Shown here in pieces: positions 5,235 to 35,178 of a DNA stretch of 43,107 bases (position 1 is its first letter; each line of letters opens with the position of its first letter). The notes under the pieces are model-generated. The model ran no database searches. It was not told the DNA's origin and was given only the letters and a program-made list of their open reading frames with translations. The stretch lies in contig CABSMV010000001.1 of the NCBI GenBank assembly GCA_902478935.1, forward strand, positions 1-43,107, given 5' to 3'. The position numbers and the translations under genes were made by a program. The stretch comes from an uncultured Collinsella sp. GTDB taxonomy: Bacteria; Actinomycetota; Coriobacteriia; Coriobacteriales; Coriobacteriaceae.

Positions 5235-5359
5235 GGGAGGGACGAGGGCTTAGTTCCCCAATCGTCCTCGGGCATGCAAAAAGCCTCGCTGCGCACTTCG
5301 TGCGGCGAGGCTTTTTGCCCCCTGCGGAAAGATTGGTGAACTAAGCCCTCGTCCCTCCC
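5235..5359 (+). repeat. Rod-like structured repeat, copy A
   Basis: Outer stem of about 28 bp, CGTCCTCGGGCATG / CCCCTGCGGAAAG internal motifs, inner stem, apical GCAC-TTC-GTGC. Confidence 0.85.
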
Positions 5360-5380
5360 AGGTTGACCTACTCGAGGTCG

Positions 5381-5507
5381 TCGCCCTTGTGGCGTTAGGG
5401 CGGAAAATAATAAGAAGCCTTCGCGCTGCGGAATGATTTTGGAAACTAAGTACGGGGACCCGCCCAAGCCGTCCTGCTCGATCGCCCTTGTGGCGTTGGG
5501 GCGGAAA
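5381..5507 (+). repeat. 26-bp direct repeat pair (small hairpins)
   Basis: TCGCCCTTGTGGCGTTAGGGCGGAAA (5381-5406) and TCGCCCTTGTGGCGTTGGGGCGGAAA (5482-5507); one mismatch. Confidence 0.8.
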
Positions 5508-6006
5508 GTATGGGGCGTTAGGGCTTCTTTGCTGATGGGGGATTAGTATGCCCGGGCTTGGTTGGGGAATGCCTGGTCTAGTGAGGCTTGGAGTTTTTCG
5601 AAGGATGTCTGCAGGTTGAGGTGTTGGTCTGCAGAGCGTTTTGCTTCTGTGGTGGGGGAGTCGAGGAGGCCGTTTCTCTGTGTCGGGGGGAAGGAGAAAA
5701 GGTTTGCATGATTAAGGGATGGCTGCTGTGCTGCGTCGTTGGAAGAATGCATGCTTATGCGGCCTCCTCGATGTCCACCAAAAGGTTGCGCACGGGGTGT
5801 GCTGCTAGGTCCCGTGCGTTGGCAGTATTATGCCGCGGCTGCTGCAAAGAAGCGCTAAAGAAAGGCTTAACCTGGTTTGGTGTTACGATGAAACTGCAGG
5901 TCAGAGGTATCGAATAACACTTTTGAAAGGTTTTGGGCTTAAGGGCTTTCTAAGGTTTGTGGCGCGGATGTGGCTCGCCTGTGTGGGGCGTGTGGATGGC
6001 TCGTTC

Positions 6007-6993
6007 CTAGCGCTGCGGCTCTGCGGCGCGCACCTGCTCGATGACCTTTTTCATCGTGGCGTCGATGCGGTCTTTTTTGAGCTCGCATTCCCAGATGGTT
6101 ATGGGCGTCCAGCCCATTTGAGTGAGTGCTGCCACGGCAGCGCGGTCGCGCTCGACGTTGCGGCGAAACTTTGCCTCCCAAAACTCAACGTTGCGCTTGG
6201 GCTTGCTAGGGTTGCATTTGGGACAGCGGTGCCAAAAACAGCCGTTGACGAAGATGGCGATCTTGCGCCCGGGAAAGGCGATGTCGGGTTTGCCGGGAAC
6301 CTTCCATTCCAAGCGATAGCCCGTAAGGCCCGCGGCGCGCAGGCGCTGGCGAACGAGCAGCTCGGGCTTGGTGTTCGCACGCTTGTTGCCCTTCATGGAC
6401 TTTTTTATAGCGGCGCGACGGCGTACCAGTTCGCGCTCGTCAGCGGAGAGGTCCGAGGTATCGATGCCGTCGAGCAGACCGGGCTTGGGACGCTTTTTGC
6501 TGCGGCGCTTGGCTTTGCGCTTGGGTTTGGTAACGGGCTCGTCGGCTGTGGTGGACTCGGTGCGGTTGGCGGCGTTGGCCTCAAGCCGGTCTTCCTTCAG
6601 CTCAATCAGGGCATCAATGAGCCCCTTGTCGGCGGGCATCCATTCCACCGTGGCAAGCGAGGTGCGCGGAATCCAGCGGATATCGAGTTGGCGGTCGTGC
6701 TTCTGCGGCTCATCGGATTCATCGGCGAGCGAGCAGTAGTAGCACTCCATGGAGAGATGGAAATCGGGGTAGTCGTACTCAACGGTGTAAAAATCGCGCA
6801 GGTTGGTGACTTTGACCCGTAGCTCTTCCATGAGCTCGCGGCGTACAGCGTCCTCGGGCGTCTCGCCGCGCATGAGCTTGCCACCGGGGAACTCCCAAAG
6901 TCCCTGCATGTCGCCATAGCCGCGCTGCACGGCAAGCAGCTCATCGGATCCTTCCTTGCGAATGATCCCAGCGGCAACATGAACAGTCTTCAA
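6007..6993 (-). CDS. vsr: MutT-like NUDIX hydrolase fused to Vsr (very short patch repair) endonuclease
   Basis: NUDIX box GGKLMRGETPEDAVRRELMEELRV; C-terminal Vsr motifs NTKPE, PGKPDI, FVNGCFWHRC, FWEAKFRRNVERD, GW...IWECE. TTG start at 6993 with GGAGG 7 nt upstream. The 517-aa ORF-track call is over-extended. Confidence 0.88.
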   Translation of the reverse strand: MKTVHVAAGIIRKEGSDELLAVQRGYGDMQGLWEFPGGKLMRGETPEDAVRRELMEELRVKVTNLRDFYTVEYDYPDFHLSMECYYCSLADESDEPQKHDRQLDIRWIPRTSLATVEWMPADKGLIDALIELKEDRLEANAANRTESTTADEPVTKPKRKAKRRSKKRPKPGLLDGIDTSDLSADERELVRRRAAIKKSMKGNKRANTKPELLVRQRLRAAGLTGYRLEWKVPGKPDIAFPGRKIAIFVNGCFWHRCPKCNPSKPKRNVEFWEAKFRRNVERDRAAVAALTQMGWTPITIWECELKKDRIDATMKKVIEQVRAAEPQR

Positions 6994-7040
6994 CAGGAGT
7001 CCTCCCTCAACATCAAAACATAACAGGGTGGCTACCCGTA

Positions 7041-7058
7041 CCTTACACAACGGTAAGG
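7041..7058 (+). promoter_or_regulatory. BceR-type response regulator binding site candidate
   Basis: CCTTACA-CAAC-GGTAAGG resembles the TnACA-N4-TGTAA inverted repeat found upstream of BceAB-type transporters. Confidence 0.55.
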
Positions 7059-7141
7059 CAAGCGTAAGCCATATCGATGGTAGCCGACTCGTCTTCTTGC
7101 GACTATAGATGCCGTAGACTAATCGCAAGAAAGGACTCGGT

Positions 7142-10154: not shown

Positions 10155-10191
10155 CAAGCGGGCAAAATCGTCGCAAAATCAGAGGCGTATG

Positions 10192-10232
10192 ACCGCCGCG
10201 AAGGGACCAGGGGCCCTTTCGCGGCGGTTTTT
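10192..10232 (+). terminator. Rho-independent terminator of the ABC operon
   Basis: ACCGCCGCGAAGGG...CCTTTCGCGGCGGT followed by a T-tract. Confidence 0.7.
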
Positions 10233-10255
10233 GCCAATCTGGTGCGTCTCAGATA

Positions 10256-10376: not shown

Positions 10377-10444
10377 GTTTTTCTGCTAGAAGACCGCCAC
10401 GAGGGAAGGCAACTCCCTTACGGCGGTTTGGACGTTTGCCCAGA

Positions 10445-17563: not shown

Positions 17564-19615
<2,052 letters not shown>

Positions 19616-19616
19616 A

Positions 19617-19641
19617 TATTGTTAGTGCTATACTAACAATA
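19617..19641 (+). promoter_or_regulatory. Perfect palindrome containing an extended -10 element upstream of the glycyl-radical gene
   Basis: TATTGTTAGT-GCTAT-ACTAACAATA; TGCTATACT at 19626-19634. Confidence 0.5.
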
Positions 19642-19700
19642 ACGATTACTGATTAGCGTGCCGGTTTCGGCCGGCGCCTATTAATCGAAGGAGACATATT

Positions 19701-19952
19701 ATGAAGGTTTCTGAAGTTTCCGAGACTCAGGCCGATAACCTGGTCCACATGCTCGACGCTTACGCCGAGAAGGGTGGCCACCACCTGAACGTCAACGTCT
19801 TCAACCGTGAGACGCTGCTCGACGCTCAGGCACACCCCGAGAAGTACCCGCAGCTGACCATCCGCGTTTCCGGCTATGCCGTGAACTTCCACACGCTCAC
19901 CAAGGAGCAGCAGGACGAGGTCATTGCGCGTACCTTCCACGACAAGTTCTAA
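19701..19952 (+). CDS. grcA: Stand-alone glycyl-radical domain (GrcA-like; C-terminal part of PFL)
   Basis: GGHHLNVNV...[34 protein letters not shown]; own RBS GAAGGAG and ATG. Confidence 0.92.
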
Positions 19953-19980
19953 AGGGATTTAACTCCTGTAGGATTACTGG

Positions 19981-20103
19981 GGCCGTTTTTGGGTTATTTT
20001 CCAAAACGTCCTCGGACATGCAAAGAGGCTCCGCTGCGCGCGTTGCGCGGCGGGGCCTCTTTGCGTCCTGCGGGATGTTTTGGAAAATAACCCAAAAACG
20101 GCC
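19981..20103 (+). repeat. Rod-like structured repeat, copy B
   Basis: 26-bp perfect outer stem, CGTCCTCGGACATG / CGTCCTGCGGGATG motifs, apical GCGC-GTT-GCGC. Confidence 0.85.
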
Positions 20104-20256
20104 AAGCGGGGTTCTTCGGAGTCACCCTTTAGGCGGAACTCTCCTAATTATTTGGATGAGTCGTTTACTTACTTGTGCTGTTACCGTCTTCCCGCTGTTG
20201 TTGGGGTATGCTTTGTTCGTATGTAAACGTATGACATGTTGATAGGGGAGGGTGCT

Positions 20257-21267: not shown

Positions 21268-21323
21268 TTCGCCCCGTGCCAAAAGAATTCCTCAAACGCC
21301 TCTGATGACCGTTCACCGGCATA

Positions 21324-21404
21324 TGTCAACCGTTTGCCGACGACTGGAACTGCGAAAAGACGTATTGGTGTGAAAACGTTTGATATATGAAAACGATTGA
21401 TATA
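21324..21404. promoter_or_regulatory. LacI/ScrR- or cre-like operators
   Basis: TGTCAACCGTTTGCCG (21324-21339) and tandem TGAAAACGTTTGATATA / TGAAAACGATTGATATA (21371-21404). A related site, ATGTAAACGTATGACAT, is at 20221-20237. Confidence 0.65.
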
Positions 21405-21450
21405 TCTTACCATTGTACCGAGTTAGTATGTCGTGGAAAGGAAGTCTCGG

Positions 21451-22833: not shown

Positions 22834-22878
22834 CGGCAACGAACCGTTTTATGATTTAGAAAAGGAATGGAGAGGAAC

Positions 22879-24330
22879 ATGGACTACAAGGCAGTGTCCC
22901 AGCAAGTCGTCGACAACGTCGGCGGACTGGAGAACATCGAGGGCGCCACGCATTGCGTGACCCGTCTGCGTCTGGTGCTCAAGGATACGAGCAAATACAA
23001 CAAGGCCGAGCTCGAGAACATCGATGGCGTCAAGGGCGTGCTGTACAACAGCGGCCAGCTCATGATCATCTTCGGTACCGGTACCGTCAACAAGGTTTAC
23101 GATGAGTTTATGGCTCTGACGGGCGTTAAGGAGATCAGTGCTTCCGAGGTCAAGGGCGCTGAGGCGGACAAGAAGGGCAAGTTCTTCTCGGTCCTCAAGG
23201 TATTCTCGGACATCTTTATCCCCATCATTCCCGCCTTCGTCGGCGCTGCAATCATCATCGGCCTTAAGTCGCTGATCGTTGCCAACGGCCTCTTTGGCAT
23301 GGAAGGCAGCCTCGCCGATCACAGCGAGTTCCTCAAGAACCTCGCAAGCTTCTTTGCCATTATCGCCACCACGTTCGACTACCTGCCTGTCCTGGTTATG
23401 TACAGCGCGGTCAAGCGTTTTGGCGGTAACCCGATCCTGGGCATCCTCGTCGGTATCGTCATGGTTCACCCGAGCCTTATGAACCGCAACACGTTCGTTA
23501 TGGACCCGACGGGTGCTGAGTACTGGAACTTCGGTCCGCTATCCATTCCCATGGTTGCTTTCCAGGGCGGCGTATTCCCTGCAATCCTGACTGCCTGGTT
23601 TATGGCCAAGGTCGAAAAGATTGCCCAGAAGTACATCCCCGAGGTCGTTTCGTTCGTCTTTGTCCCGACCGTTACCCTGATTCTCGCTAACGTCGCCCTG
23701 TTCACCGTGTTCGGCCCGCTCGGCAACCTGATCGGCGACGTCCTCGCTGGCGTAATCGATGTCCTGTACAACAGGATGGGCGTCTTTGGCGCCTTTGTCT
23801 TCGCCGCGTTCCTGCAGCCGCTCGTCGTTACCGGTACGCATCAGTTCATCCAGGGTATCGAGGCAAACCTTGTTGCCACGACTGGCTTCAACTACATCCA
23901 GGCCATCTGGTCGGTTTCCATCATCGCCCAGGGCGGCGGCGCCATCGGTATGTACCTCATTCACAAGAAGCACTCCAAAGAGCGCAACATCTGCATGTCG
24001 TCCTTTATCCCGACGCTGGTCGGAATCTCCGAGCCCGCTATCTTTGCTGCAAACATGCGCTATTCGATCATTCCGTTCATCTGCGCATGCATCGGTGCAG
24101 GCTGCGGCGGTGCCTTCGTCAAGCTCTTTGAGGTGCGCGCTATCGGTCAGGGTCTGACCGGCGTGCTTGGCCTGCTCATCGTCACGCCCGAGACCCTCGT
24201 GTGGTATGTGGCTGGCAATCTCATCGCCTTTATCGTGCCGATCGTCTTGATCTTTGCCTACAACAAGGCAAAGGGCGTGCCGACCACCGATGAAGAGGGC
24301 GCTGGCGCTGGCTTCGACGTTAGCTTCTAG
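22879..24330 (+). CDS. scrA: PTS EIIBC component, sucrose/trehalose/beta-glucoside family
   Basis: EIIB HCVTRLRLVLKD; EIIC with VVTGTHQ and GISEPAIF; no EIIA domain. Confidence 0.9.
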   Translation: MDYKAVSQQVVDNVGGLENIEGATHCVTRLRLVLKDTSKYNKAELENIDGVKGVLYNSGQLMIIFGTGTVNKVYDEFMALTGVKEISASEVKGAEADKKGKFFSVLKVFSDIFIPIIPAFVGAAIIIGLKSLIVANGLFGMEGSLADHSEFLKNLASFFAIIATTFDYLPVLVMYSAVKRFGGNPILGILVGIVMVHPSLMNRNTFVMDPTGAEYWNFGPLSIPMVAFQGGVFPAILTAWFMAKVEKIAQKYIPEVVSFVFVPTVTLILANVALFTVFGPLGNLIGDVLAGVIDVLYNRMGVFGAFVFAAFLQPLVVTGTHQFIQGIEANLVATTGFNYIQAIWSVSIIAQGGGAIGMYLIHKKHSKERNICMSSFIPTLVGISEPAIFAANMRYSIIPFICACIGAGCGGAFVKLFEVRAIGQGLTGVLGLLIVTPETLVWYVAGNLIAFIVPIVLIFAYNKAKGVPTTDEEGAGAGFDVSF

Positions 24331-24369
24331 TTGAGCCGTTCAGTGTAATCTGAGGATAAGTCCATTTGA

Positions 24370-24407
24370 GGAAGGGCGTTCGACTCGTGTGAGTCGAGCG
24401 TCCTTCC
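24370..24407 (+). other. Intergenic 17-bp hairpin between the PTS gene and scrB
   Basis: GGAAGGGCGTTCGACTC-GTGT-GAGTCGAGCGTCCTTCC; two G-U pairs, no U-tract. Confidence 0.6.
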
Positions 24408-24431
24408 CCATAGACGAGAAAGTCAACGGCG

Positions 24432-25874
24432 ATGTTAAATCAAAAAAACAAGGTGACACGCGCGGACTATGAGCAGTGGCGTGTCGGACAGGATGAGACG
24501 GCGGCTCGCATCGCGTCCGACCCCGATAGGCTTCTGTTCCATGTGGAGCCTGAGCTTGGCTGGCTCAACGACCCCAACGGTTTGGTTCAGATTGGTGATA
24601 CGTATCACATCTATCATCAATACGATCCGTTCGATGCTGCGCATGGCGGTCCAGTGCTTTGGAACCATCTGACGACAAAGGATTTTGTGACGTACGAGAA
24701 TCACGGCCCCGTGCTGTTCCCCGATTCCGATTTGGATTCGAGCGGAGCGTATTCTGGTTCTGCCTTTGTACGTGATGGCAAGATTCACTACTTCTATACC
24801 GGCAACGTCAAGCATTTTGACCGCGATGATTACGACTACGTGTTGACGGGCCGTGAGCAAAACCAGATTCATATGGTTGCCGAGAATCCCGACGAATTGG
24901 GCGAGAAGTGCATAGCTGTTGGACCGGTCGATTACCCCGACGATATCGGTACGCACGTGCGCGACCCCAAGATCCTTGAGCACGATGGTATCTACTACAT
25001 GGTTCTGGGTGCTCGTACGAAAGACGACCGTGGCTGCGTGCTTGTCTATACCTCGCGCAATCTTGAGGACTGGAGCTATGCGACGCGCATTGAGTTGGGC
25101 GAGAAGTTTGGCTTTATGTGGGAGTGCCCCGATCTGTTTGAGCTCGATGGCGAGCTTATTCTCGTTTGCTGTCCGCAGGGTGTGCCTGCCGATGGTTGGC
25201 GTTACCGCAATCCGCATCAGTGCGTGTGGTTCCCCATCGAGGCCGATTGGGAGGCGCCGAGCTTTAAAATCGTCGGGCAGGGCATGCCCCCGATGGTCGA
25301 TGCCGGTTTTGATTTCTATGCTCCGCAGTCCTTTGAGGATACTGCAGGCCGGCGTTTGATGATCGGATGGTCGGGTTGCCCCGATGCGACGGCAGAAAAC
25401 CCGACGGTGGCGCGCGGGTGGCAGTGCGCGTTGACGGTGCCGCGAGAGCTGAGCATGCGCGATGGCAAGCTCTGCCAGCAACCGGCGCACGAGATTGAGA
25501 GGATACGCGGCGACTGCGTTCGCGCGACAGGCGGTGAAACCGTTGAGGAGCCGGGCCGCCTGTTTGATCTTGTGGTTTCCTGTGAGGGCGCCAAGATGGT
25601 CGAGCTCGAAATCCGCAAGGGTGTCTTTGTGTGCTATGCAGACGGGATGCTTACCCTCGACATGGGTGACGAAGGCTATGGGCGCGACCAGAGGTCGATC
25701 GAGCTCAGCGAGCTTCGCGACCTGCGCGTGCTTTCGGACACTACGATGGTCGAGATTTTTGCAAATGGCGGCGAGGCGGCACTTACGAGCCGTACCTATT
25801 CGCCGGCGGTTCCGGCGATGGAGCTGCACGCCGAGGGCGCGGCATCGATGAATTTCTACCGCCTCGTGCATTAA
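24432..25874 (+). CDS. scrB: Sucrose-6-phosphate hydrolase (GH32)
   Basis: WLNDPNG, YSGSA, VRDPK, MWECPDLF and GFDFYAPQ motifs. Confidence 0.93.
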   Translation: MLNQKNKVTRADYEQWRVGQDETAARIASDPDRLLFHVEPELGWLNDPNGLVQIGDTYHIYHQYDPFDAAHGGPVLWNHLTTKDFVTYENHGPVLFPDSDLDSSGAYSGSAFVRDGKIHYFYTGNVKHFDRDDYDYVLTGREQNQIHMVAENPDELGEKCIAVGPVDYPDDIGTHVRDPKILEHDGIYYMVLGARTKDDRGCVLVYTSRNLEDWSYATRIELGEKFGFMWECPDLFELDGELILVCCPQGVPADGWRYRNPHQCVWFPIEADWEAPSFKIVGQGMPPMVDAGFDFYAPQSFEDTAGRRLMIGWSGCPDATAENPTVARGWQCALTVPRELSMRDGKLCQQPAHEIERIRGDCVRATGGETVEEPGRLFDLVVSCEGAKMVELEIRKGVFVCYADGMLTLDMGDEGYGRDQRSIELSELRDLRVLSDTTMVEIFANGGEAALTSRTYSPAVPAMELHAEGAASMNFYRLVH

Positions 25875-26150
25875 CCGTGCATGGGGCACGATTGGACTTG
25901 CTGGGCGGAATGTGTTGCAGTTGCCGCAGCGAACTACCGTTTATCGCGTATAGCTACCGTTTGCGGGATAAGTAACACTCATTTATAAACCGTGTAAAAT
26001 CTCAGCCAAGCACGGAGTTTTCCAGGGAGACGCTGTCCTTTGTTGTGTGCAAGGGGCGGCGTCTCTTTGGCGCTTGGAGGCCGTTGCGCAACAGTGCGGC
26101 GGCGCGTGTCATGTATTGAAAAACCAACGTTGAGATGGGTCGTGATAATA

Positions 26151-27005
26151 ATGGGCAAGTACGTAATCGTGGTTGAGTCTGGTTCGGATGTGACGCCGGA
26201 GCTTTGCGAACGCTACGGCATCGTGCGCGTGCCCATGCATGTCACGATTGGTGACGAGACCGTCGAGGACGGCTCGATCGATCCGCTCGAGATTTATTCG
26301 CGCTGCAACGAGTTTGGCGTGATGCCCAAGACCAGTGGCTGTGCGCCTGCGGATTTCGCTCACGTGTATGACCGCATTCATGCCGAGCAGCCCGACGCGA
26401 CTATTCTGCATCTCGCGTATTCCGAGGCCACGACCTGCTCGCATCAATCATCGAAGATCGCCGCCAAGGGTCGCGACTACGTTTACTCCATGGACACGCG
26501 TTTTGTCTCGGTGGGCCAGTCGCTCGTTGTCGTCGAGACCGCCAAATACATCGAGGCTCACCCCGATGCCACCGTCGACGAGATCTTTGCATTTACGAAT
26601 TCCGTCATGGACCGTGTGCTGCTGGGCTTTGTTCCTACCGACCTAGCCTTCCTTAAGGCAGGCGGTCGTCTGTCCAACGTGGCATTCCTTGGCGCCCACC
26701 TGCTCAAGATTAAGCCCTGCATTGAGGTAACGGGCGGTAAGTTTGTGGCGACCAAGAAGTTCCGCGGCTCTATGCTCAAATGCGCCCGCGCCTTTATTGA
26801 CCACATGGTTGCGAAGGGCGAGATTGACTACTCGCACATTGGCCTGGCGTATTCGGTAGGTCTTTCCCAGGAGCTGCGCGACGACATGGAAGTCTATGCG
26901 TACGACCTGGGCTTTAAGGACGTTACCTGGACTCAGGTCGGCGGTGTCATCTCGAGCCATTGCGGCCCGACCGCCTTCGGTGCGGTGCTCACGCTTAAAG
27001 CGTAA
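26151..27005 (+). CDS. DegV-family fatty-acid-binding protein
   Basis: VESGSD, PKTS, LKAGGRLS, LLKIKP and ISSHCGP motifs. Confidence 0.92.
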   Translation: MGKYVIVVESGSDVTPELCERYGIVRVPMHVTIGDETVEDGSIDPLEIYSRCNEFGVMPKTSGCAPADFAHVYDRIHAEQPDATILHLAYSEATTCSHQSSKIAAKGRDYVYSMDTRFVSVGQSLVVVETAKYIEAHPDATVDEIFAFTNSVMDRVLLGFVPTDLAFLKAGGRLSNVAFLGAHLLKIKPCIEVTGGKFVATKKFRGSMLKCARAFIDHMVAKGEIDYSHIGLAYSVGLSQELRDDMEVYAYDLGFKDVTWTQVGGVISSHCGPTAFGAVLTLKA

Positions 27006-27191
27006 GGCCTGGCGTCTATCGATTTCTATTGCCTCGGCGGCGGGCGGGTTGCGACAACCTTCCCGCCGCTCTTGCGTAGGGCCAAATAGGACAATCCAAT
27101 TGACCGCTAAACCGTTTCGCCATCATGCATATGGGCTAGAATGACTCTGGCATTTATGTAGCTAAAACCAATGAGAGGCAAGGTAGCGGGA

Positions 27192-28010
27192 ATGGCTGAG
27201 ATGACGCTCGAGGGTGTGGACGCTCGTCCCGAGGACTCTGCGTTTGCCCTGGGCCGCGTGCATTCGATTGAGACGATGGGAACGGTCGATGGACCCGGCA
27301 TCCGCTTTGTGGTGTTTGTTCAGGGCTGTCCCATGCGCTGTGCGTATTGCCACAACCCCGACACCTGGTCGGTTAACGGCGGCACCATGGTGACCGTCGA
27401 GCACCTGATGGACGAGTTCCAGAGCAACCATGAGTTTTATCGCAGCGGCGGCATTACGGTTTCGGGTGGCGAGCCGCTTCTGCAGCCCGAGTTTTTGGCC
27501 GATCTGTTCCGCGCCATGCATAATAACCCCGATGGTCGCGTGCATACCTGCCTGGATAGCTGCGGATATGCGTTTGATCCCGCGCATCCCGAGAAGTTCG
27601 ATGCCGTACTCAACGAGACCGATATGGTGCTGCTCGACATTAAGCATGCCGATCCGGTTGAGCATAAAAAGCTGACCGGTTGCGATCCTGCACGTATCCT
27701 GGCGTTTGGCGATGAGCTGGCGCATCGAAGAATCAAGGTCGTTATCCGTCACGTAGTAGTACCGGGTATTACCGACACGGTGGAGGAGTGCGAGGCACTC
27801 GGTCGCCTGATTGCCCCGTGGCATAACGTGGTGGGCTTGGAAATGCTGCCGTATCACACGATGGGTGTCGTCAAGTACGAGCAGCTGGGGATTCCCTATA
27901 AGCTCGAGGGCGTGCCCCAGATGGATACCGCGCGCATGCCCGAGCTGCGCAACGCTGTCATGACGGGCATGAAAAAGCGCCGCGCGGAACTCAAAAACGC
28001 CATCGGATAG
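27192..28010 (+). CDS. pflA: Pyruvate formate-lyase activating enzyme (radical SAM)
   Basis: GTVDGPGIRFVVFVQGCPMRCAYCHNPDTW, SGGEPLLQ and LPYHTMG motifs. The start could also be 27171 or 27201. Confidence 0.95.
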   Translation: MAEMTLEGVDARPEDSAFALGRVHSIETMGTVDGPGIRFVVFVQGCPMRCAYCHNPDTWSVNGGTMVTVEHLMDEFQSNHEFYRSGGITVSGGEPLLQPEFLADLFRAMHNNPDGRVHTCLDSCGYAFDPAHPEKFDAVLNETDMVLLDIKHADPVEHKKLTGCDPARILAFGDELAHRRIKVVIRHVVVPGITDTVEECEALGRLIAPWHNVVGLEMLPYHTMGVVKYEQLGIPYKLEGVPQMDTARMPELRNAVMTGMKKRRAELKNAIG

Positions 28011-28134
28011 AGTGCCATTTTTGCCCCTTTATGATACCCGCGCTGCGCTGGCCTAACGACTCCGTATCGCGCGGTTGAGTCAAAATGCTGGTACCATACC
28101 GTGGATAGCAGTTTTCACGGGTTTGGGGGATGGT

Positions 28135-28875
28135 ATGCCTACCATCGCAATCATCGGTGCACTCGAAAAAGAGGTTGCGCAGATTAAAGAAGAACTGAAC
28201 GGCGCTCGTGTGGCACAAGAGGCGGGCTTGACCGTTGTCAGCGGCGAGCTCGACGGTTTGTCCGTTGTTGCTACGACCGCTGGCATGGGAACCGTAAACG
28301 CCGCGGCGGCAACGCAGCATCTCATCAGCAAATATGCCCCGCAGGCCGTTGTGTTTTCGGGCATTGCGGGTGGCCTAAACCCTAAGCTCCATATTAACGA
28401 CGTGGTTATAGGCAAGTGCCTGCGCTATCTCGATACTGACACGGCGCTCATCGCCGAGTCGGCGCCGGGACTCGAGGAGTTTGTCTCGACACCGGCGTTG
28501 GCTGATGTTGCCGCCGCCGTGCTTGCCGAGCATGGATTTGTGGATGTCTCGGCGGATGAGAATTCTGCGGAGAGGGACCCCAAGCAGTTCCTGTGTGGCA
28601 CTATCGCCACGGGTGACCGCTTTGTTACGGGTGACGCCATGCGTAACGCTGCGATTGAGGCCACGCATGCCGATTGCGTCGAGATGGAGGGCGCGGCAAT
28701 TGCGCACATCGCGGCCAAGAATGGTGTCGATTGCCTGGTACTGCGCGCTATCAGCGATAATTGTGACGAGGCATATGACGCGTTTTGCGAGCGCGAGTTC
28801 GATCTGGATGAGTACGCTCGCACCGCGAGCGGCATCACGCTTGACATCGTTCGTCGTATCGCCGCCGCGCAATAG
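28135..28875 (+). CDS. mtnN: 5'-methylthioadenosine/S-adenosylhomocysteine nucleosidase
   Basis: IAIIGALEKEV, GMGTVNAA, SGIAGG, TGDRFV, VEMEGAAIA and RAISD motifs. Confidence 0.93.
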   Translation: MPTIAIIGALEKEVAQIKEELNGARVAQEAGLTVVSGELDGLSVVATTAGMGTVNAAAATQHLISKYAPQAVVFSGIAGGLNPKLHINDVVIGKCLRYLDTDTALIAESAPGLEEFVSTPALADVAAAVLAEHGFVDVSADENSAERDPKQFLCGTIATGDRFVTGDAMRNAAIEATHADCVEMEGAAIAHIAAKNGVDCLVLRAISDNCDEAYDAFCEREFDLDEYARTASGITLDIVRRIAAAQ

Positions 28876-28914
28876 CACGCCCGTTTTGTAAAAACCTACG
28901 ACCAAGGAGTATCC

Positions 28915-29505
28915 ATGGCCGATTCCATTAACTATCAGCTTGCCAAGTTTGTTGCCAGCTACGGCAAGGTTTCGCAGATCCCCGAGTCCACCTGTCCCGA
29001 GGTGAGCTTTGTCGGCCGCTCAAATGTGGGCAAGTCGTCTATCATGAACAAGCTCTTTGGCCGCAAGAACCTGGTCAAGGTTTCGAGCACGCCGGGCAAG
29101 ACGAGCAACATCAATTTCTTCGAGGCCGACGACGTGCACTTTGTGGACCTGCCGGGCTACGGTTTCGCTCGCCGTTCCAAGGCCGAGCGCGACCGTTGGG
29201 CCGAGCTCATTGGCGACTTTTTCGACTCCGAGCGCAGCTTCAACCTGGTTGTGTCGCTGGTGGACATTCGCCACGACCCCAGTAAACTCGACTATGACAT
29301 GATCGACTACCTGCAGGGCAACGAGTTCAACTTTATCGTCTGCCTCACCAAAGCCGACAAGCTCAGCCGCACCCAACAGGCCCGCCAGGCGGCAGCCATC
29401 AAAAAGCAGCTCAACGTCCCGGCCGAAAATGTAATCATCACAAGCTCCCAAACCGGTACCGGCATCGACGAACTAAAAAAGCGCATCGCCGAGGCTTGCC
29501 TCTAA
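28915..29505 (+). CDS. engB: Ribosome biogenesis GTP-binding protein YihA/YsxC
   Basis: GRSNVGKSS, SSTPGKT, DLPGYG and TKADK motifs. Confidence 0.96.
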   Translation: MADSINYQLAKFVASYGKVSQIPESTCPEVSFVGRSNVGKSSIMNKLFGRKNLVKVSSTPGKTSNINFFEADDVHFVDLPGYGFARRSKAERDRWAELIGDFFDSERSFNLVVSLVDIRHDPSKLDYDMIDYLQGNEFNFIVCLTKADKLSRTQQARQAAAIKKQLNVPAENVIITSSQTGTGIDELKKRIAEACL

Positions 29506-29595
29506 TAAGTGCTCCTATCAATAAAATGCAGAACATCAGCCCGGCGACTTTCCAGAGCGTAGGTCCCTGTAGCCGCCGCCGGCGAAGTTAACATA

Positions 29596-29720
29596 GGGGA
29601 GGCCAGGGGCTTTGCCCCCAAATCTTTCCGCAGGACGGCAGGACCCCCGCCGCACGAAGTGCACAGCGGGGGTCCTGCCATGTCCGAGGACGATTTGGGG
29701 GCAAAGCCCCTGGCCTCCCC
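29596..29720 (-). repeat. Rod-like structured repeat, copy C
   Basis: On the minus strand: 28-bp perfect outer stem, CGTCCTCGGACATG / CGTCCTGCGGAAAG motifs, apical GCAC-TTC-GTGC. Confidence 0.85.
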
Positions 29721-29741
29721 GGCGAGTATACGGGACGGCGA

Positions 29742-30623
29742 CTACAGGTATTCGATCTGGGCGCCTTCCGTGTCGCACGTGAGGATATGCGTATCACACT
29801 TAGGGAACTGCTCGCGCAGCTTGACCTGCAGGAACTTTGCCACGATGGTGTCGTCAGTCACGGCCATGAGGGTCGAGCCCGAGCCGCTGATCCAGATGGT
29901 CTTGGCGCCTCCGTTAAGGCAGGTGTCGCGCACAGCGTTGTAGTCGGGGATAAGGCGGCGGCGATAGGGCTCCTGGATGCGGTCGTCATTGGCGGCGGCA
30001 ATCAGGTCAAGGTCGCCGGTCTCCAGACCGCGCGTCATGCCAGCAATGCGGCCCATCTGCCACACGGCGGTGGAGAGCGGAATCTCCTGCGGCACGACCT
30101 TGCGCGCCTCGCTCGTATGCACCTCGTAGGGTGGAATCACAGTAATAAAACGAAGCTTGTCGCTTACCTCGTAGCGCAGGCACTGGGGCAGCGAGTCGGT
30201 CGGCGTAAAGGAGCAGACGGCGCCGCCAAGGATGGCGGGAGCGACGTTATCAGGATGCCCCTCGACTTCGGTGGCAATGCGAACAAGCTCGGCACGGTCG
30301 ACGGTGTGGCCCGTCAGTGCGGCGGCTGCCATGATGCCGGCGACGACGCAGGTGGAGCTGGAGCCCAGGCCGCGGGCGACGGGCACGTCGGTCTGGATGT
30401 CGATGGCAACGGGGAAGGCCGGCTCGCCCCATGCGGCCAGCGCATCGACAAAGCTCACATAGACCAGGTTATTCTCGTTTTGGAACTCCTTGGGGCAGCC
30501 CGTGATGGTGAGCTTGTCGGCGCGCTCGAAGGTGAAGTGCGAGTAGAGGCTGACGGCCATGCCGAGGGTGTCGTAGCCGATGCCTAGGTTGGCGCTGGTT
30601 GCTGGGACGGTGATTTTGATCAT
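29742..30623 (-). CDS. thrB: Homoserine kinase
   Basis: VPATSANLGIGYD, PVARGLGSSS, EGHPDNVAP and ISGSGST motifs; RBS AGGAGG. Confidence 0.96.
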   Translation of the reverse strand: MIKITVPATSANLGIGYDTLGMAVSLYSHFTFERADKLTITGCPKEFQNENNLVYVSFVDALAAWGEPAFPVAIDIQTDVPVARGLGSSSTCVVAGIMAAAALTGHTVDRAELVRIATEVEGHPDNVAPAILGGAVCSFTPTDSLPQCLRYEVSDKLRFITVIPPYEVHTSEARKVVPQEIPLSTAVWQMGRIAGMTRGLETGDLDLIAAANDDRIQEPYRRRLIPDYNAVRDTCLNGGAKTIWISGSGSTLMAVTDDTIVAKFLQVKLREQFPKCDTHILTCDTEGAQIEYL

Positions 30624-30637
30624 GTGGGTCCTCCTGG

Positions 30638-30749
30638 GCGGGTCTGGCCGTTTAGTTCGCTGCTCGGGCAGTCCTGGCTCGCTCGGAAAGCACATTAAGT
30701 GCTTTCCGGCTCGTGCGGAACTCGCGACGAACTAAACAGGCAGACCCGC
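30638..30749. repeat. 112-bp rod-like hairpin between thrC and thrB
   Basis: GCGGGTCTG..GTTTAGTTCG / CGAACTAAAC..CAGACCCGC outer stem; CGGAAAGCAC-ATTAA-GTGCTTTCCG apical stem. Confidence 0.75.
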
Positions 30750-30826
30750 ATGTCAGTTCGTCATCATCCCGGGGGTTATCTGATGAAAGAAGGTGCGCCG
30801 GCTTTCGCCGGCGCTTAATAAGGGAT

Positions 30827-32344
30827 CTAGTTGGTGCTCATTCGTTTTGCTGCAGACTCGACGTAGCTTGCCATCTCATCGACGTCGCAGACGTCTTCGA
30901 AGCGGACGGGTTTGGATTCGAGTTCGGCGAGCTGGGTCGGGGCGACCGTGTTGGTGGCCTGCTCGAGCACACGCATAGCCTCAAAATCATCCTCGGGAAC
31001 ATCGAGACCCAGGGCGTCGCAGCAGGCGCGTGGGAACTTGTAGGGGCTGGCGGTCGAAAGCAGCACGCGGGCCTTGGCGCCCTCGGCGGGAGCGACCTTT
31101 TCAAAGACGTGATAGCCGCAAGCGGTGTGCGGGTCGATCACGTAGCCGTTCGCGCCCCAGCAGCTCTTGATGGCAGCGCGGACCTCGTCCTCGCTGGCCC
31201 AACCGCAGCCAAAGACGCTCTGAATCTTTGCCAGCAGGTCGGCGGGAACCTCGTAGCGACCAGTCTGTGCCAGCTGCTCCATAAGGCCGGCAACAAGCTC
31301 GCAGTCGCCATCGGACAGGAAGTACAGCATGCGCTCCAGGTTAGAGCTGATGAGGATGTCCATCGACGGCGAGATGGTCGTGAAGAACGGACGGTTGCGG
31401 TCGTAGACGCCGGTGGTCAAGAAGTCGGCGAGCACGTTGTTCTTGTCGCTCGCGACGATGAGCTTGGCGACGGGCAGACCCATACGCTTGGCATAGTAGC
31501 CGGCCAGGATATCGCCAAAGTTGCCGGTCGGTACGCAGAACTCCACGGCGTCGCCGGCCTCGATAGCGCCGGCGCGCAGCAGCTGCGCATAGGCGGCAAA
31601 GTAGTAGACGACCTGCGGTACCAGACGGCCGACATTGATGGAGTTGGCGCTCGAAAGCACCGTGCCGGCGGCCTCCAGGCGCTCGGCAAGCTCCTTATCG
31701 GCAAAGATACGCTTGACGGCACTCTGGGCGTCGTCAAAGTTGCCGCGGATTCCGCAGACGGCGACGTTATCGCCCTCCTGAGTGGACATCTGCAGGTTCT
31801 GGACGCGGCTGACCTTGCCCTCGGGATAAAAGACGGTGATGCCCGTGCCCGGAGCGTCGGCAAAACCGGCGAGCGCGGCCTTGCCGGTGTCGCCTGACGT
31901 GGCGGTGACGATCATGATGCGCTCGGCGCCGCCGTCCTTGGCGGAAGTGCGGGCCATGAGGCGGGGGAGCATCTGTAGGGCGACGTCCTTGAAGGCGCTT
32001 GTGGGGCCGCCAAAGAGCTCCATCACATAGGTCTGAGGGGCGTCAGCACCCGGCGCTGCGTCGAGTTTGACGAGCGGCGTAACCTCTTCACTCGCGAACG
32101 TGCCGCGGTATGCCTCGTCGACACACGCCGAAATTTCTTCGGCCGTGTAATCATTCAGTAACATTCCCAACACATCTTGAGCGATTTCAAAGTACGATTT
32201 AGCTGCAAGCGAGCTGATATCGACCTGCTGGGTGCCGAGCTCGTCCGAGACAAACAAACCCCCGTCGGGAGCGATGCCAGTGCGGATTGCCACCTTACTT
32301 GAGCACGATAAAGTGCGTCCTCGTGTACTATGATAAGTTCCCAT
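30827..32344 (-). CDS. thrC: Threonine synthase
   Basis: YHSTRG, GIAPDGGLF, PLP lysine in GPTSAFKD, ATSGDTG, SANSINVGR, VPTGNFG and TASPYKF motifs. Confidence 0.96.
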   Translation of the reverse strand: MGTYHSTRGRTLSCSSKVAIRTGIAPDGGLFVSDELGTQQVDISSLAAKSYFEIAQDVLGMLLNDYTAEEISACVDEAYRGTFASEEVTPLVKLDAAPGADAPQTYVMELFGGPTSAFKDVALQMLPRLMARTSAKDGGAERIMIVTATSGDTGKAALAGFADAPGTGITVFYPEGKVSRVQNLQMSTQEGDNVAVCGIRGNFDDAQSAVKRIFADKELAERLEAAGTVLSSANSINVGRLVPQVVYYFAAYAQLLRAGAIEAGDAVEFCVPTGNFGDILAGYYAKRMGLPVAKLIVASDKNNVLADFLTTGVYDRNRPFFTTISPSMDILISSNLERMLYFLSDGDCELVAGLMEQLAQTGRYEVPADLLAKIQSVFGCGWASEDEVRAAIKSCWGANGYVIDPHTACGYHVFEKVAPAEGAKARVLLSTASPYKFPRACCDALGLDVPEDDFEAMRVLEQATNTVAPTQLAELESKPVRFEDVCDVDEMASYVESAAKRMSTN

Positions 32345-32447
32345 ATAACACTGCTCCTCGGATGCCTTGGTCCCAATCGGTGAAACCATGGTATCAGAGC
32401 ACGCAAAATAGGTTCGCAGAGGCTTTTAGAAAGGTAACCTCCAGCCC

Positions 32448-33836
32448 ATGATTAAGATTGCCAAGTTTGGCGGCTCGTCGGTCGCCGACGCCGAACACTT
32501 CAAGAAGATCAAGGCCATCGTCGATGCCGACCCGGCTCGCCGTTTTGTGGTGGTTTCCGCCTGCGGTCGCCGTTTTAAGGGCGACACCAAGGTGACCGAC
32601 CTGCTCTATCTGGTCAATGCGCACGTTAAGTACCACGTGTCGTGTGAGGAGCTACTCGAGGACATTGGCCAGCGCTATTTTGATATCGCTGACGAGCTGG
32701 AGCTCACCTATCCCATCCGTGAGGAGTTCGCGGCCTTTGCCGAGCGCGCCCGCTCGGGCGGCTACTCCACCGAGGAGCTTGTGAGCCGTGGCGAGTACTT
32801 TACCGCCCGCCTGATGGCCGAGTACCTGGGCTTACCGTTCCTGGACGCCGCGACGGTTGTGGCGTTCCATCACGACGGTACGCTCAGCATGAATCGCACC
32901 TCCGAGCTGGTGCAGGAGTACGGTCAGCAGGGCGGCTTTGTTATGCCCGGTTTCTACGGCGCGACGCGTGAGGGCCAGATCAAGCTGCTCGACCGTGGTG
33001 GCGGCGATATCTCGGGCTCGATCTTGGCTAAGTGCCTGGGCGCCGATCTGTACGAGAACTGGACCGACGTCTCGGGCTTCTATTCTGCCGATCCGCGTAT
33101 CGTTCCCGAGGCTCAGCCCATTGCGCGCGTTACCTATGAGGAGCTGCGCGAGCTTTCGTACATGGGCGCAAGCGTCCTGCACGAGGAGGCCGTGTTCCCC
33201 GTGCGCGAGGCGGGTATTCCGCTGGTCATCAAGAACACCAATGCGCCGCAGGACCCCGGCACCATCATTAGCGAGACGGCTGATGAGGGTGAGGCAGAGC
33301 CCATCATTACCGGCGTGACCGGCAAGCGCGGCTTTGTCGCCATCAACGTTGCCCGCGACCGCACCAAGCCCCGTGTTGGCTTTATGCGCCGCGCGCTTTC
33401 GGTCTTCGAGCGCTATGACGTTTCCGTCGAGCACATGCCCACCGGTGTCGACCGCTTTGGCGCCGTGGTGCAGGAGCAGGACGTGCACGACTCGCTGTAC
33501 TCGCTCGTGGGCGACATTCAGCAGGAGGTCGAGCCGCTCGAGATCGAGGTTGTCGAGGGCCTGGCGCTCATCGCGACCGTCGGCCGTAACCTGCGTGGCC
33601 GCGCAGGTATCTCGGGCCATCTGTTTGGCATGCTTGGCCAGGCCGGCGTGAGCGTGCGCATGATTTCGCAGAGCTGCGACGAGATCAACATCATTATCGG
33701 TGTCGAGGAGAAGGACTTCGACCTGGCGATTCAGACCATCTACCGTGCCTTCTCCGATGAGAACGGCATTGTGAAGGTCTCCGACCTGGAGGTCCCCGCA
33801 CCGGTCGATCCCGCCCTGGCCGCGCTCCGCAAGTAG
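32448..33836 (+). CDS. lysC: Aspartate kinase
   Basis: KFGGSS, RGGGDI, WTDVSG..ADPR and ELSYMGASVLH motifs; C-terminal ACT domains. Confidence 0.95.
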   Translation: MIKIAKFGGSSVADAEHFKKIKAIVDADPARRFVVVSACGRRFKGDTKVTDLLYLVNAHVKYHVSCEELLEDIGQRYFDIADELELTYPIREEFAAFAERARSGGYSTEELVSRGEYFTARLMAEYLGLPFLDAATVVAFHHDGTLSMNRTSELVQEYGQQGGFVMPGFYGATREGQIKLLDRGGGDISGSILAKCLGADLYENWTDVSGFYSADPRIVPEAQPIARVTYEELRELSYMGASVLHEEAVFPVREAGIPLVIKNTNAPQDPGTIISETADEGEAEPIITGVTGKRGFVAINVARDRTKPRVGFMRRALSVFERYDVSVEHMPTGVDRFGAVVQEQDVHDSLYSLVGDIQQEVEPLEIEVVEGLALIATVGRNLRGRAGISGHLFGMLGQAGVSVRMISQSCDEINIIIGVEEKDFDLAIQTIYRAFSDENGIVKVSDLEVPAPVDPALAALRK

Positions 33837-33909
33837 CTGCCGTCCCGGTGCATTTTTGGGACAAGTGCCAAAAATCTACGGCGGGGCGTTTCGTTTCGGT
33901 TTCGTTTCG

Positions 33910-33940
33910 ACGGGGCGGGTTTCGTGTCCGCCCCGTTCTT
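33910..33940 (+). terminator. Hairpin / possible terminator between lysC and asd
   Basis: ACGGGGCGG-GTTTCGTGT-CCGCCCCGT-TCTT, preceded by TTTCG tandem repeats. Confidence 0.45.
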
Positions 33941-34010
33941 GTATACACTGGCAACAATAATCAGCCTGCTCGGCGTGCGGGCAAAAGCCAAAACCTTTAA
34001 AGGGGGAAGC

Positions 34011-35036
34011 ATGAAACAGTACACGGTTGCTATTTTGGGCGCGACGGGAGCCGTGGGCACCCAGATGCTCGAGTGCCTCAACGAGCAGGAGCTCCCGGTC
34101 GGCAAGCTTAAGCTGCTGGCGAGCGCGCGTTCTGCGGGCAAGACCGTCGAGTTCCGCGGCGAGCAGATCGTGATTGAAGAGGCTTGCCCCGAGGCCTTTG
34201 AGGGCTGTGATATTGTGCTCGGAGCCGCCGGCGACGATATCGCGAAGGAGCTGCTGCCCGAGGCCGTCAAGCGCGGCGCCGTCGTGGTCGACAACAGCCA
34301 TGCCTTCCGCATGGATCCCGAGGTGCCGCTGGTCGTGCCCGAGATCAATGCCGACGATATCAAGTGGCATCACGGCATTATCGCCAACCCCAACTGCGCG
34401 ACCATCATCGGCCTGGTTCCCACCTGGCCGCTGCATCAGCTCGCCGGCGTGAAGCGCATGATCGTCTCGACGTATCAGGCGGCTTCGGGTGCCGGCGCTC
34501 CCGGCATGGCCGAACTCGAGGCTCAGCTGGCCGCCCTGGGCCGTGGCGAGGAGATTCCCGAGCCGCGCGCGTTTGCCGCCCAGCTGGCGAGCAACCTGAT
34601 TCCGCAGATTGGCGGCGTCAAGGAGGAGGGCTTTACCTCCGAGGAGATGAAGTTGCAAAACGAGGGCCGCAAGATCATGCACCTGCCCGAGCTGCGCGTG
34701 AACTGCACCTGCGTGCGCGTGCCCGTGCTGCGTTCGCACTCCGAGAGCATTACGCTCGAGTTTGAGCGCGATATTACGGTGGAAGAGGCCCGTGCTGCGC
34801 TTGCTACCGCTCCCGGCGTCAAGCTGGTTGACGATATGGCTGCCGAGGATGCACACGACCGCTTCCCCATGCCGATGGACACCTCCGACCAGGACCTGAT
34901 TTGGGTCGGCCGCGTGCGCCGCGACATCTCGAACCCCGACGCTGCGCGCGGCATCACCTTCTGGTGCTGCGGCGACCAAATCCGTAAGGGCGCGGCAACC
35001 AACGCCGTCCAGATCGCTAAGCTGCTCTGCGAGTAG
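34011..35036 (+). CDS. asd: Aspartate-semialdehyde dehydrogenase
   Basis: GATGAVG, IANPNCAT, STYQAASGAG, CVRVPV..HSE and IRKGAATNAVQIA motifs. Confidence 0.96.
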   Translation: MKQYTVAILGATGAVGTQMLECLNEQELPVGKLKLLASARSAGKTVEFRGEQIVIEEACPEAFEGCDIVLGAAGDDIAKELLPEAVKRGAVVVDNSHAFRMDPEVPLVVPEINADDIKWHHGIIANPNCATIIGLVPTWPLHQLAGVKRMIVSTYQAASGAGAPGMAELEAQLAALGRGEEIPEPRAFAAQLASNLIPQIGGVKEEGFTSEEMKLQNEGRKIMHLPELRVNCTCVRVPVLRSHSESITLEFERDITVEEARAALATAPGVKLVDDMAAEDAHDRFPMPMDTSDQDLIWVGRVRRDISNPDAARGITFWCCGDQIRKGAATNAVQIAKLLCE

Positions 35037-35048
35037 TGTGACCTGTCC

Positions 35049-35178
35049 GGCGGGGGCCGGGCTTAGCTTTCAGAACGTCCTCGACCATGTGTGGCGCCTT
35101 GTCCTGCTCCTTCGGAGCCGCGGACAAGGCGCCACACTGGTCTGCGGAGTGTTCTGAAAGCTAAGCCCGGCCCCCGCC
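35049..35178 (+). repeat. Rod-like structured repeat, copy D
   Basis: 27-bp perfect outer stem, CGTCCTCGACCATG / TGGTCTGCGGAGTG motifs, apical GCTCC-TTC-GGAGC. Confidence 0.82.

Follow-up and report, generated by a model that had tools for sequence, protein, structure and literature searches.

REPs are extragenic imperfect palindromes that lie mostly downstream of genes and are thought to be transcribed (PMC3733652), and compensatory changes are reported to be common in the hairpins of REPINs (PMC3116915). Here we report a family of long palindromic elements found in a 43,107-nt stretch of DNA from an uncultured Collinsella sp. (contig CABSMV010000001.1 of assembly GCA_902478935.1, positions 1 to 43,107; hereafter the window), which contains four copies, A to D. 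That the family is real is hardly open to doubt, and it is undescribed in Rfam and in the literature searched. We tentatively favor the reading that it is a REP/REPIN-like palindromic family of Coriobacteriaceae, expanded in Collinsella, which constitutes an oriented module of transcript 3′ ends with a mobile-element ancestry.

The four copies in the window had been recognized in an initial annotation made from the sequence, and we recovered them at the same positions with the motifs described there, scoring 102.7-136.3 bits against a covariance model. Each has an outer stem of 26-28 bp, the left motif CGTCCTCG-NNN-ATG, an inner stem, an apical triloop and the right motif CTGCGG(A/G). The two motifs belong to an invariant asymmetric core, 5′-(A)CGTCCTCG-GNC ... 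GNC-CTGCGG(A/G)ATG-3′, in which CGTCC-T-C-G (5′ side) and C-T-G-C-G-G (3′ side) are the invariant positions. This core, the source of the asymmetry of the element, folds into a mini-hairpin whose imperfections are a bulged T, a T.C mismatch and a G/AA loop, and the invariance of its bulges and mismatches argues that it is under selection.

The elements exist in two forms. In the short form (82-97 nt; 78-99 nt across the matches in element-poor species and other genera), the core caps a stem of ~28 bp (~28-32 bp in those matches), and the order is stem, ACGTCCTCG, a tiny hairpin (e.g. GGCC-TTC-GGCC) and CTGCGGAATGT. The long form (121-131 nt), to which all four copies of the window belong, equals the short form with ATG and a hairpin of 12-19 bp replacing the apical loop. 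Many inner hairpins have an A-rich ascending and a T-rich descending strand (e.g. GGCTTTTTG, GGGGGTTCTTTCG) and resemble a bidirectional terminator, whereas the second apical subtype, represented by the apex of copy D (CCTGCTCC-TTC-GGAGC), does not. The 10 nt that follow each of the 12 intact copies in this genome contain no run of at least four T; the claim that the elements lack a U-tract thus holds for the sequence after the whole element, but not for the descending strand of many inner hairpins. Among 62 distinct elements, in which orthologues are not independent, words of the core recur at the outer edges: the 3′ flank begins with (C)TGCG in 13 and has CTAYG in 16 more, and GTCC is found at the 5′ edge in 15. 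Together with the two forms and the swapped inner modules described below, these words suggest that hairpin modules may have been nested in the apical loops of older cores.

Both nucleic acids are predicted to fold strongly. The RNA folds of copies A to D with their flanks reach -107 to -132 kcal/mol, and the single-stranded DNA folds reach -57 to -71 kcal/mol on either strand (z -12 to -17.5), a stability attained by none of 200 shuffled sequences.

The genome comprises 1.94 Mb in 212 contigs with 60% GC. A strict regular expression retrieved 10 copies, on which the covariance model was built, and a scan with this model gave 12 intact long copies and three partial matches. The intact copies score 97.8-136.3 bits on the sense strand, and the same places score 45-86 bits on the opposite strand. 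The three partial copies are interrupted by an insertion sequence (IS), all at the same base of the right motif, with left halves at the ends of contigs C5, C78 and C147 and right halves at the starts of C116 and C138 and inside C33. At least one short copy (~95 nt) is located downstream of a gene on contig C22. The four copies noticed at the outset are therefore real but not the full set, which amounts to ~16 copies (12 intact, three interrupted and at least one short) on at least 12 contigs, besides a remnant at 5426-5464 of the window.

The stems covary around conserved loop motifs, as had been noted in the initial annotation. In the alignment of 10 copies, both sides have changed at 39 of the 56 predicted pairs. 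A larger alignment of 58 matches from this genome and its relatives (44 distinct rows) shows changes on both sides at 45 of 55 pairs and in 651 cells, whereas cells with a change on one side only are rare. In this alignment, 98.1% of the 2409 cells are paired compared with 70.5% in shuffles, the covariation score was reached by none of 500 shuffles, and a slid control with the partner shifted by 1-3 columns gave 39-52% pairing. The larger alignment was fitted to the model and leans to the structure, and its rows are related, but the effect far exceeds these caveats. The short helix inside the motif covaries as well, with several pair types at both column pairs (38/114: GC 37, AU 4, CG 3; 39/113: AU 32, GC 8, CG 4). 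The stems of the copies, which had been called unrelated, are in part related, since GGGCTTAG-like words recur among them, and the term was an overstatement.

To define the level at which the pairing is kept, we took a census of the outer stems of 53 distinct elements with ungapped stems, after dropping 16 of 69 regular-expression hits that had gapped stems or were false. They contain 1414 Watson-Crick pairs and 51 others (C.T 12, C.A 11, T.G 6, A.C 5, G.T 5, G.A 5, T.C 3, G.G 3 and C.C 1). If selection acted on the helix as sense RNA, G-U pairs should be tolerated. The G.T and T.G pairs number 11 against 16 for A.C and C.A, and the argument that G-T wobbles fall on the sense strand is not borne out; nor is selection on the sense RNA, as there is no excess of G-U and both DNA strands fold equally well. 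These two observations indicate that complementarity is kept at the DNA level or that selection acts on both strands. Templated correction of quasi-palindromes, a known mutational process, would be one such DNA-level route. The two apparent wobbles of the apical stem are better explained by a 2-nt bulge and a triloop on a stem of 5 bp, which folds with DNA parameters select and with which double changes from A-T to G-C in copies B and I agree.

We searched for the family in other genomes. The model matches 35 of 36 further Collinsella genomes and, in a second sample, 110 of 121 genomes of the genus. Weaker matches were found in four other genera of Coriobacteriaceae (6/12, 1/3, 2/9 and 1/4 genomes), none in the single genome of a fifth, and none in 24 genomes from 12 other families of the order. 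The matches in element-poor Collinsella species and in the other genera are of the short form, which is probably the ancestral form across Coriobacteriaceae. A scan of GTDB genomes with the core pattern returned at least 120 stretches, and the 80 loci examined comprise 32 true short-form elements, three chance matches without palindromic flanks and 45 others. All 32 are labeled Collinsella or Coriobacteriaceae except for one metagenome-assembled genome labeled Ruminococcus. The 45 loci (core pattern with a gap of 36-40 nt) were rejected as a chance resemblance to a conserved coding stretch in many high-GC bacteria of unrelated phyla; its reverse strand reads PFLMPIEDV, which we take to be EF-Tu. 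Such coding matches are a warning against searches by motif only.

As the initial annotation had stated, the family is not a recognized one. Rfam models gave no match at gathering scores in the whole window, and an E-value scan of six copies returned generic miRNA-hairpin models only, the best with 37.6 bits against a gathering score of 90. The literature search found no description of such an element in Collinsella or Coriobacteriia, with the reservation that the tables of PMC8040213 might list the motif under an HMP2 number; the accessible text of this human-microbiome RNA survey mentions Collinsella for a different, ribosomal-leader motif (PMC8040213). A phage or plasmid origin was rejected: none of 50,697 phage records matches, and the only 'plasmid' that matches, a 900-kb replicon of Collinsella aerofaciens, has the element in the same thrB context.

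The elements are placed with respect to genes. Thirteen of the 15 long copies of this genome start 9-34 nt after the stop codon of a Pfam-confirmed gene on the same strand (fba, grcA, thrB, asd, and genes for an Fe-ADH, an MIP channel, an aminotransferase IV, a TPP enzyme, a P-type ATPase, pta, an Opp-type (oligopeptide ABC) ATPase, ppc and groEL), including the aldolase, grcA, thrB and asd genes named in the initial annotation, and the short copy on C22 is likewise located just after a stop codon. In five element-poor species, all 18 matches are preceded by open frames of 162-492 codons at a distance of 8-59 nt, which is within 25 nt for 17 of them, and for 9 of the 11 examined matches in the other genera a frame of 302 codons or more ends 5-26 nt upstream (the tally covers 11 of the 12 matches, leaving out G080:C2:196017). 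Counting each gene once, 24 of 26 distinct loci within the genus are 8-59 nt downstream of a same-strand stop codon, in agreement with the proposed sense orientation. For the two other loci, copies I and K, we looked for small open reading frames before the element and found none convincing.

It is the gene, rather than the chromosome arm, that the orientation follows. Of the four copies in the window, C alone is on the minus strand, with plus-strand copies to either side; C and D, on opposite strands, are ~5 kb apart, and the 15 copies of G187, the complete genome of another species, are mixed in strand with opposite copies 5 kb apart. These nearby opposite-strand copies rule out an orientation set by the replichore. 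In an independently annotated C. aerofaciens record, thrB ends 21 nt before the element, on which no feature is annotated.

The same sites carry ordinary terminators in relatives. In all five element-poor relatives, whose fba genes are 80-86% identical, the place of copy A after fba is taken by a GC hairpin with a T5-6 run. Conversely, nine genes that have the short form in relatives carry no recognizable element here: a hairpin with a T-run follows four of them (on C76, C74, C24 and C48), a motif-less long hairpin one (C18) and a hairpin without a T-run another (C60), and nothing obvious is present at three. The element thus appears to be interchangeable with ordinary terminators at the same genes.

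To see where transcripts end, we used three stranded, paired raw-read runs from a relative of ~95% identity, mapped on window positions 4200-6600 at a likeness of at least 90%. The sense depth drops at least 10-fold across the position of copy A in all three runs, with partial mapping inside the element (Table 1). The upstream edge of the element is covered by 48, 51 and 44 antisense reads compared with 3, 7 and 1 sense reads, and the reads in the opposite direction continue from a very abundant small RNA at ~5669-5805. These data suggest that most sense transcripts stop by the element while antisense transcripts pass, the exact sense 3′ end lying beyond the resolution of the data.

We compared the loci with those of G187 by blastn of the 600-nt flanks. 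Each of the 15 long copies of G187 has its orthologous locus among the 15 occupied here, and G199 has 15 long copies and one weak match; thus, no presence/absence polymorphism was seen between this genome and G187, and the number of long copies is the same in G199. The content of the loci has changed. For the 12 intact copies, the elements of the two genomes are between 66% (L) and 100% (H) identical, beside 89-99% for the upstream coding flanks and 52-97% for the downstream flanks. Copy L and its orthologue have different apical subtypes and differ on both sides at 13 of 27 outer pairs, and copy L is closer to the thrB-locus element of another species than to its own orthologue. Copy I has kept its outer stem with four compensated pairs and has a swapped inner module, and copy G is chimeric, its left arm failing to match its right arm. 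Of the outer-stem differences in the orthologous pairs E, F, I, K and L, 41 are compensated on both sides and one is not. Shared loci with differing elements indicate that the sites are stable and that whole elements or modules are exchanged between loci or lineages. We infer that the elements are maintained and probably not mobile on the species timescale.

In the reading that we favor, the element would be transcribed as the end of the mRNA of the upstream gene. Most sense transcripts would end at it, and the very stable helix would shield their 3′ end, so that the element would take over the job of the ordinary intrinsic terminator of relatives. The asymmetric core would give polarity, presumably as the recognition site of a putative factor, and either selection on both strands or a process acting on the DNA would preserve the Watson-Crick complementarity of the arms. 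The family would descend from a mobile REP/REPIN-like element that no longer moves on the species timescale, with whole elements or inner modules exchanged between loci over longer times.

Several points weigh against this reading. Copy I is 103 nt from the start of a divergent ABC gene, and copy K is convergent with copy M and located 144 nt upstream of a divergent tRNA-Leu gene. A consensus terminator scan of positions 19000-36000 called trivial sub-hairpins only and none of copies B, C and D as a whole element, and the absence of a T-run after the 12 intact copies deprives them of the canonical terminator signal. Only ~16 genes per genome carry the element, which is therefore not the general terminator of these bacteria. 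Pairs of G-U type make up 0.75% of the 1465 pairs, 11 compared with 16 of A.C type, and no binding factor was identified. As the hairpin is near-symmetric and both strands fold equally, the proposed polarity derives from the core motif and a single RNA-seq locus. At that locus, the fba-sense direction (first mate on the minus strand) was deduced from the usual convention and from the 2.3-fold stronger fba signal that way. The relative has a different element there, with an arm complementary to the remnant at 5426-5464, which makes the mapping inside the element partial; moreover, a terminal snap-back hairpin would be poorly primed by random priming in library preparation.

Another explanation, possible in our view but unlikely, is a selfish non-autonomous hairpin of single-stranded DNA, of REPIN type, which is or was moved by a host Y1 (HUH) transposase that reads the imperfect core hairpin and its bulged T; its place after stop codons would reflect targeting or tolerance of insertion with no host function. 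The Watson-Crick-only pairing and the equal folding of both strands speak for it, as do the compensatory changes reported for REPIN hairpins (PMC3116915), the different members at orthologous loci (L, 66% identical; I, inner swap; G, chimeric) and the frequent recurrence of core words in the flanks. Two full-length Y1_Tnp genes are present in the genome, C47:8714-9523 and C24:5448-6176, IS200-like/RAYT-like with a C-terminal helix-turn-helix. The C47 gene is single-copy and encodes 270 aa, with 37.2 bits on PF01797 and 44.9 bits on NF047646 (REP-associated tyrosine transposase), the latter below the cut-off of 80. Its close orthologues (at least 75% identity) are present in 53 of 60 sampled genomes of the genus and, among the 36 sampled genomes with element counts, in 31 of 32 element-rich and 0 of 4 element-poor genomes, a co-occurrence that is confounded by phylogeny.

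The adjacency expected of a RAYT was rejected: with filters off, no element was found within 1.5 kb of either Y1 gene, nor do inverted repeats of the family flank the gene. The Y1 gene as the transposase of the family is a possible lead only. A selfish element is also hard to reconcile with the identity of all 15 loci and of the copy number between species whose coding flanks are 89-99% identical, with a strict sense orientation and a spacing of 8-34 nt from the stop codon, which are not known properties of REPINs, and with the absence of ordinary terminators at the occupied sites.

Improbable, but worth stating, is a more far-reaching reading, in which the core is a new orientation-specific, U-tract-free 3′-end signal, read by a factor and carried on a self-renewing palindrome that accepts modules at its apex. 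A dedicated factor would read the core on nascent RNA or on extruded or unwound DNA. Arms re-templated from each other would explain covariation by Watson-Crick pairs without G-U intermediates, and insertion of modules into apical loops would explain the long form, the core words in the flanks and the swapped inner modules. If this were true, the elements would represent a new class of hybrid between terminator and mobile module, and a structured 'safe-harbor' site for a bridge-RNA recombinase.

We also doubt that the element is a module of the 3′ untranslated region (UTR) selected purely as RNA, whether a protein-bound stabilizer, a processing site (e.g. for RNase III) or a source of small RNA. 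Its sense orientation after stop codons, the internal-loop nucleotides that are invariant across genera, the 40-50 bits by which sense matches outscore antisense ones and the end of sense RNA coverage at the element in the relative are consistent with such a module, but G-U pairs are not enriched, and one-side-only changes are rare beside the 651 doubly changed cells. Antisense transcripts with an equally stable helix cross the element, which argues against cleavage directed by structure only. In addition, the element has no Rfam relative, and its wholesale replacement at a locus would be unusual for a conserved RNA gene. The alternatives offered by the initial annotation, a 3′UTR RNA module or an element recognized as a folded single strand, both keep some probability.

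It is very unlikely that the element is instead a DNA-level protein-binding or cruciform site at highly transcribed gene ends (a topological barrier, a gyrase site like BIME-2, BIMEs being known to bind gyrase, or an oriented RNA polymerase roadblock), which would fit the Watson-Crick-only, strand-symmetric pairing, the invariant core, the host genes, most of which belong to central metabolism or encode chaperones and are expected to be highly expressed, and the rarity of sense reads entering even the first arm, but for which no candidate protein is known, while positive supercoiling ahead of the polymerase disfavors cruciform extrusion and the apparent stop at the 5′ edge could equally be a sampling artefact of a terminal RNA hairpin.

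The IS that interrupts three copies is 1578 bp long and has a frame of 466 codons that scores 164.2 bits on NF033542 (IS110-family RNA-guided transposase; cut-off 140). Twenty-six of 60 sampled genomes of the genus carry the IS, which sits in the element at the same place and in the same orientation in all three copies here and at 12 of 13 loci in relatives with readable flanks, the thirteenth showing 3 flank bases only. The junction reads CATTCCG-CA-[IS]-CA-GGACG with the 2-bp core at both ends, and the transposase gene is antisense to the hairpin element. Insertions were found in at least five loci (B, D, M, N and O), locus B being occupied in several relatives. The conserved right motif is thus the specific insertion site of this IS110-family element, and the insertions in this genome are recent, as the three loci are intact in G187. 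The non-coding left end of the IS (~290 nt) holds ACATTCCGC, identical over 9 nt to the left target flank (chance expectation ~0.03, i.e. 330 x 20 / 4^9), which makes this stretch a candidate bridge-RNA guide. The other IS110-like gene, on C160, belongs to a different element.

Two IS110-family elements are described as targeting REPs, ISPpu9 (PMC12288879) and ISPpu10, which needs the stem-loop of its target (10.64898/2026.03.19.712850). REPs also serve as targets of IS621. The Collinsella elements would add a structured repeat outside Proteobacteria as a second natural target type for bridge-RNA IS110 elements and bear on how target structure gates bridge recombination. They also break short-read assemblies where the IS sits.

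Table 1. Elements, host genes and the inserted IS, with RNA-seq depth at the fba locus of the relative; positions refer to the window unless a contig or locus is named.
Feature	Position	Strand	Observation
Copy A, long form	5235..5359 (model 5235-5358)	+	33 nt after fba stop; 126.2 bits
Copy B, long form	19981..20103 (model 19979-20104)	+	26 nt after grcA stop; 115.3 bits
Copy C, long form	29596..29720 (model 29597-29720)	-	21 nt after thrB stop; 136.3 bits
Copy D, long form	35049..35178 (model 35048-35178)	+	11 nt after asd stop; 102.7 bits
Remnant, right half of a second element	5426..5464	+	CTGCGGAATG and right arm; left half absent
fba (class II aldolase), upstream of copy A	4203..5201	+	open reading frame; PF01116 match
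grcA-like glycyl-radical gene, upstream of copy B	19701..19952	+	open reading frame; PF01228 match
thrB, upstream of copy C	29742..30695	-	open reading frame; GHMP kinase domain matches
asd, upstream of copy D	33924..35036	+	open reading frame; PF01118 and PF02774 matches
IS110-family element	C5/C33, C78/C138, C147/C116; locus L117 1509-3086		
RNA-seq depth	4767-5009		sense 158-194; opposite not used
RNA-seq depth	5091-5171		sense 93-115; opposite 87-108
RNA-seq depth	5172-5252		sense 25-31; opposite 43-56
RNA-seq depth, inside element	5253-5333		sense 5-10; opposite 43-68
RNA-seq depth	5334-5414		sense 14-17; opposite 135-204
RNA-seq depth	5415-5576		sense 3-11; opposite not used

Further observations concern the surroundings of the copies. 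The remnant downstream of copy A has its counterpart in the relative used for RNA-seq, in which reads joining 5215 and 5474 place a matching left arm directly after fba; that is, this relative has an intact element there. Direct repeats TCG(T/A)TCGCCCTTGTGGCGTT(A/G)GGG at ~5378-5400 and ~5479-5501 surround the remnant, and in another relative 1731 nt are inserted between 5508 and 5615. The small RNA at 5655-5805, probably on the minus strand, is a discrete species bordered by adapters at 5669 and 5805, and its depth of 1100-1900 exceeds that of fba (50-190). No Rfam family matches it. Its fold has a long closing stem (z -5.3), and variable AGG-repeat insertions are present at ~5663-5702. Copies M (C138:93-130) and K (C138:310-433) face each other ~180 nt apart beside tRNA-Leu, an arrangement kept in G187 (1158192-1158629) and G199. 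Long near-perfect hairpins after genes at C18 ~19290-19385, on C76 downstream of 6530 and on C24 downstream of 10032 are without the CGTCCTCG/CTGCGG core and could represent either degenerate relatives of the family or palindromic families in their own right. Remnants of Nextera-type adapters (CTGTCTCTTATACACATCT and the complementary sequence) at the ends of contigs C147, C45, C139, C149 and C120 represent assembly contamination.

If the favored reading is right, Coriobacteriia possess REP-like palindromes that are strictly oriented and occupy the terminator position of ~16 mostly central-metabolism genes in Collinsella, a common genus of the human gut. With 651 doubly changed cells and almost no G-U, the family offers a natural comparison of helix maintenance at the DNA and at the RNA level, and it poses the question of how a near-symmetric hairpin acts in one direction. 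For annotation, it matters that the elements are unannotated in a RefSeq record.

Compared with known systems, the elements resemble REPs and BIMEs in being extragenic and located after coding regions (24/26 loci), in being the target of an IS110-family element and in a core that starts with CGTC. REPs are 20-40 bp long with conserved stems of 8-9 bp, occur in hundreds of copies in both orientations and often form dimers. In contrast, the Collinsella elements are 82-131 nt long, number ~16 in each of three genomes and have hypervariable long stems with strict orientation and spacing, and they fall outside the size of 20-40 bp and the copy number of at least 100 per genome by which REPs are defined. 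By definition, an unpaired GTAG or CGTC tag marks one end of the REP palindrome (PMC3733652), whereas here CGTC opens the core inside the long outer stem. The CGTC-tagged REPs described there (PMC3733652) were rejected as relatives, as the four-letter head is the only shared part and stem length, loop, tail and copy number differ.

The likeness to REPINs consists in a long hairpin of ~100 nt, compensatory changes, vertical persistence and a RAYT-like gene in the genome. REPINs have conserved ends and a variable middle, whereas the Collinsella elements have a conserved middle and variable ends, and RAYT genes are flanked by their REPINs, whereas the Y1 genes here are not flanked by elements. 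To our knowledge, REPINs have not been reported to be oriented relative to genes. Intrinsic terminators share with the elements a sense-oriented, GC-rich hairpin 5-35 nt downstream of the stop codon, the same site in relatives and the drop of sense coverage, but the elements have no T-run after the helix, contain ~55-60 paired positions instead of 5-15 and form a repeated family with an invariant asymmetric core. 'I-shaped' hairpins without a U-tract have been proposed as intrinsic terminators in Actinobacteria.

MITEs of the Correia/ERIC type are co-transcribed as long hairpins, intergenic rods of 100-150 nt in mRNAs. They have conserved terminal inverted repeats, target-site duplications, a high copy number and presence/absence polymorphism, none of which was seen here: the terminal arms vary between copies, and the flanks, ..GTCC at the 5′ edge and (C)TGCG on the 3′ side, are not direct repeats. 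The attC sites keep structure over sequence, have extrahelical bases, stand in one orientation just after a stop codon and are recognized as a folded strand. The Collinsella elements are similar in their conserved structure, extrahelical bases and oriented position just after the stop codon, but they have no R/L boxes at their ends and no cassette array and are dispersed after housekeeping genes; on reading, no RYYYAAC/GTTRRRY box was found at the element ends, and no integrase search was made. As several defining features of each class differ, we do not file the family as a member of the REPs, REPINs, MITEs, attC sites or canonical terminators; it is functionally akin to palindromes of the REP/REPIN type.

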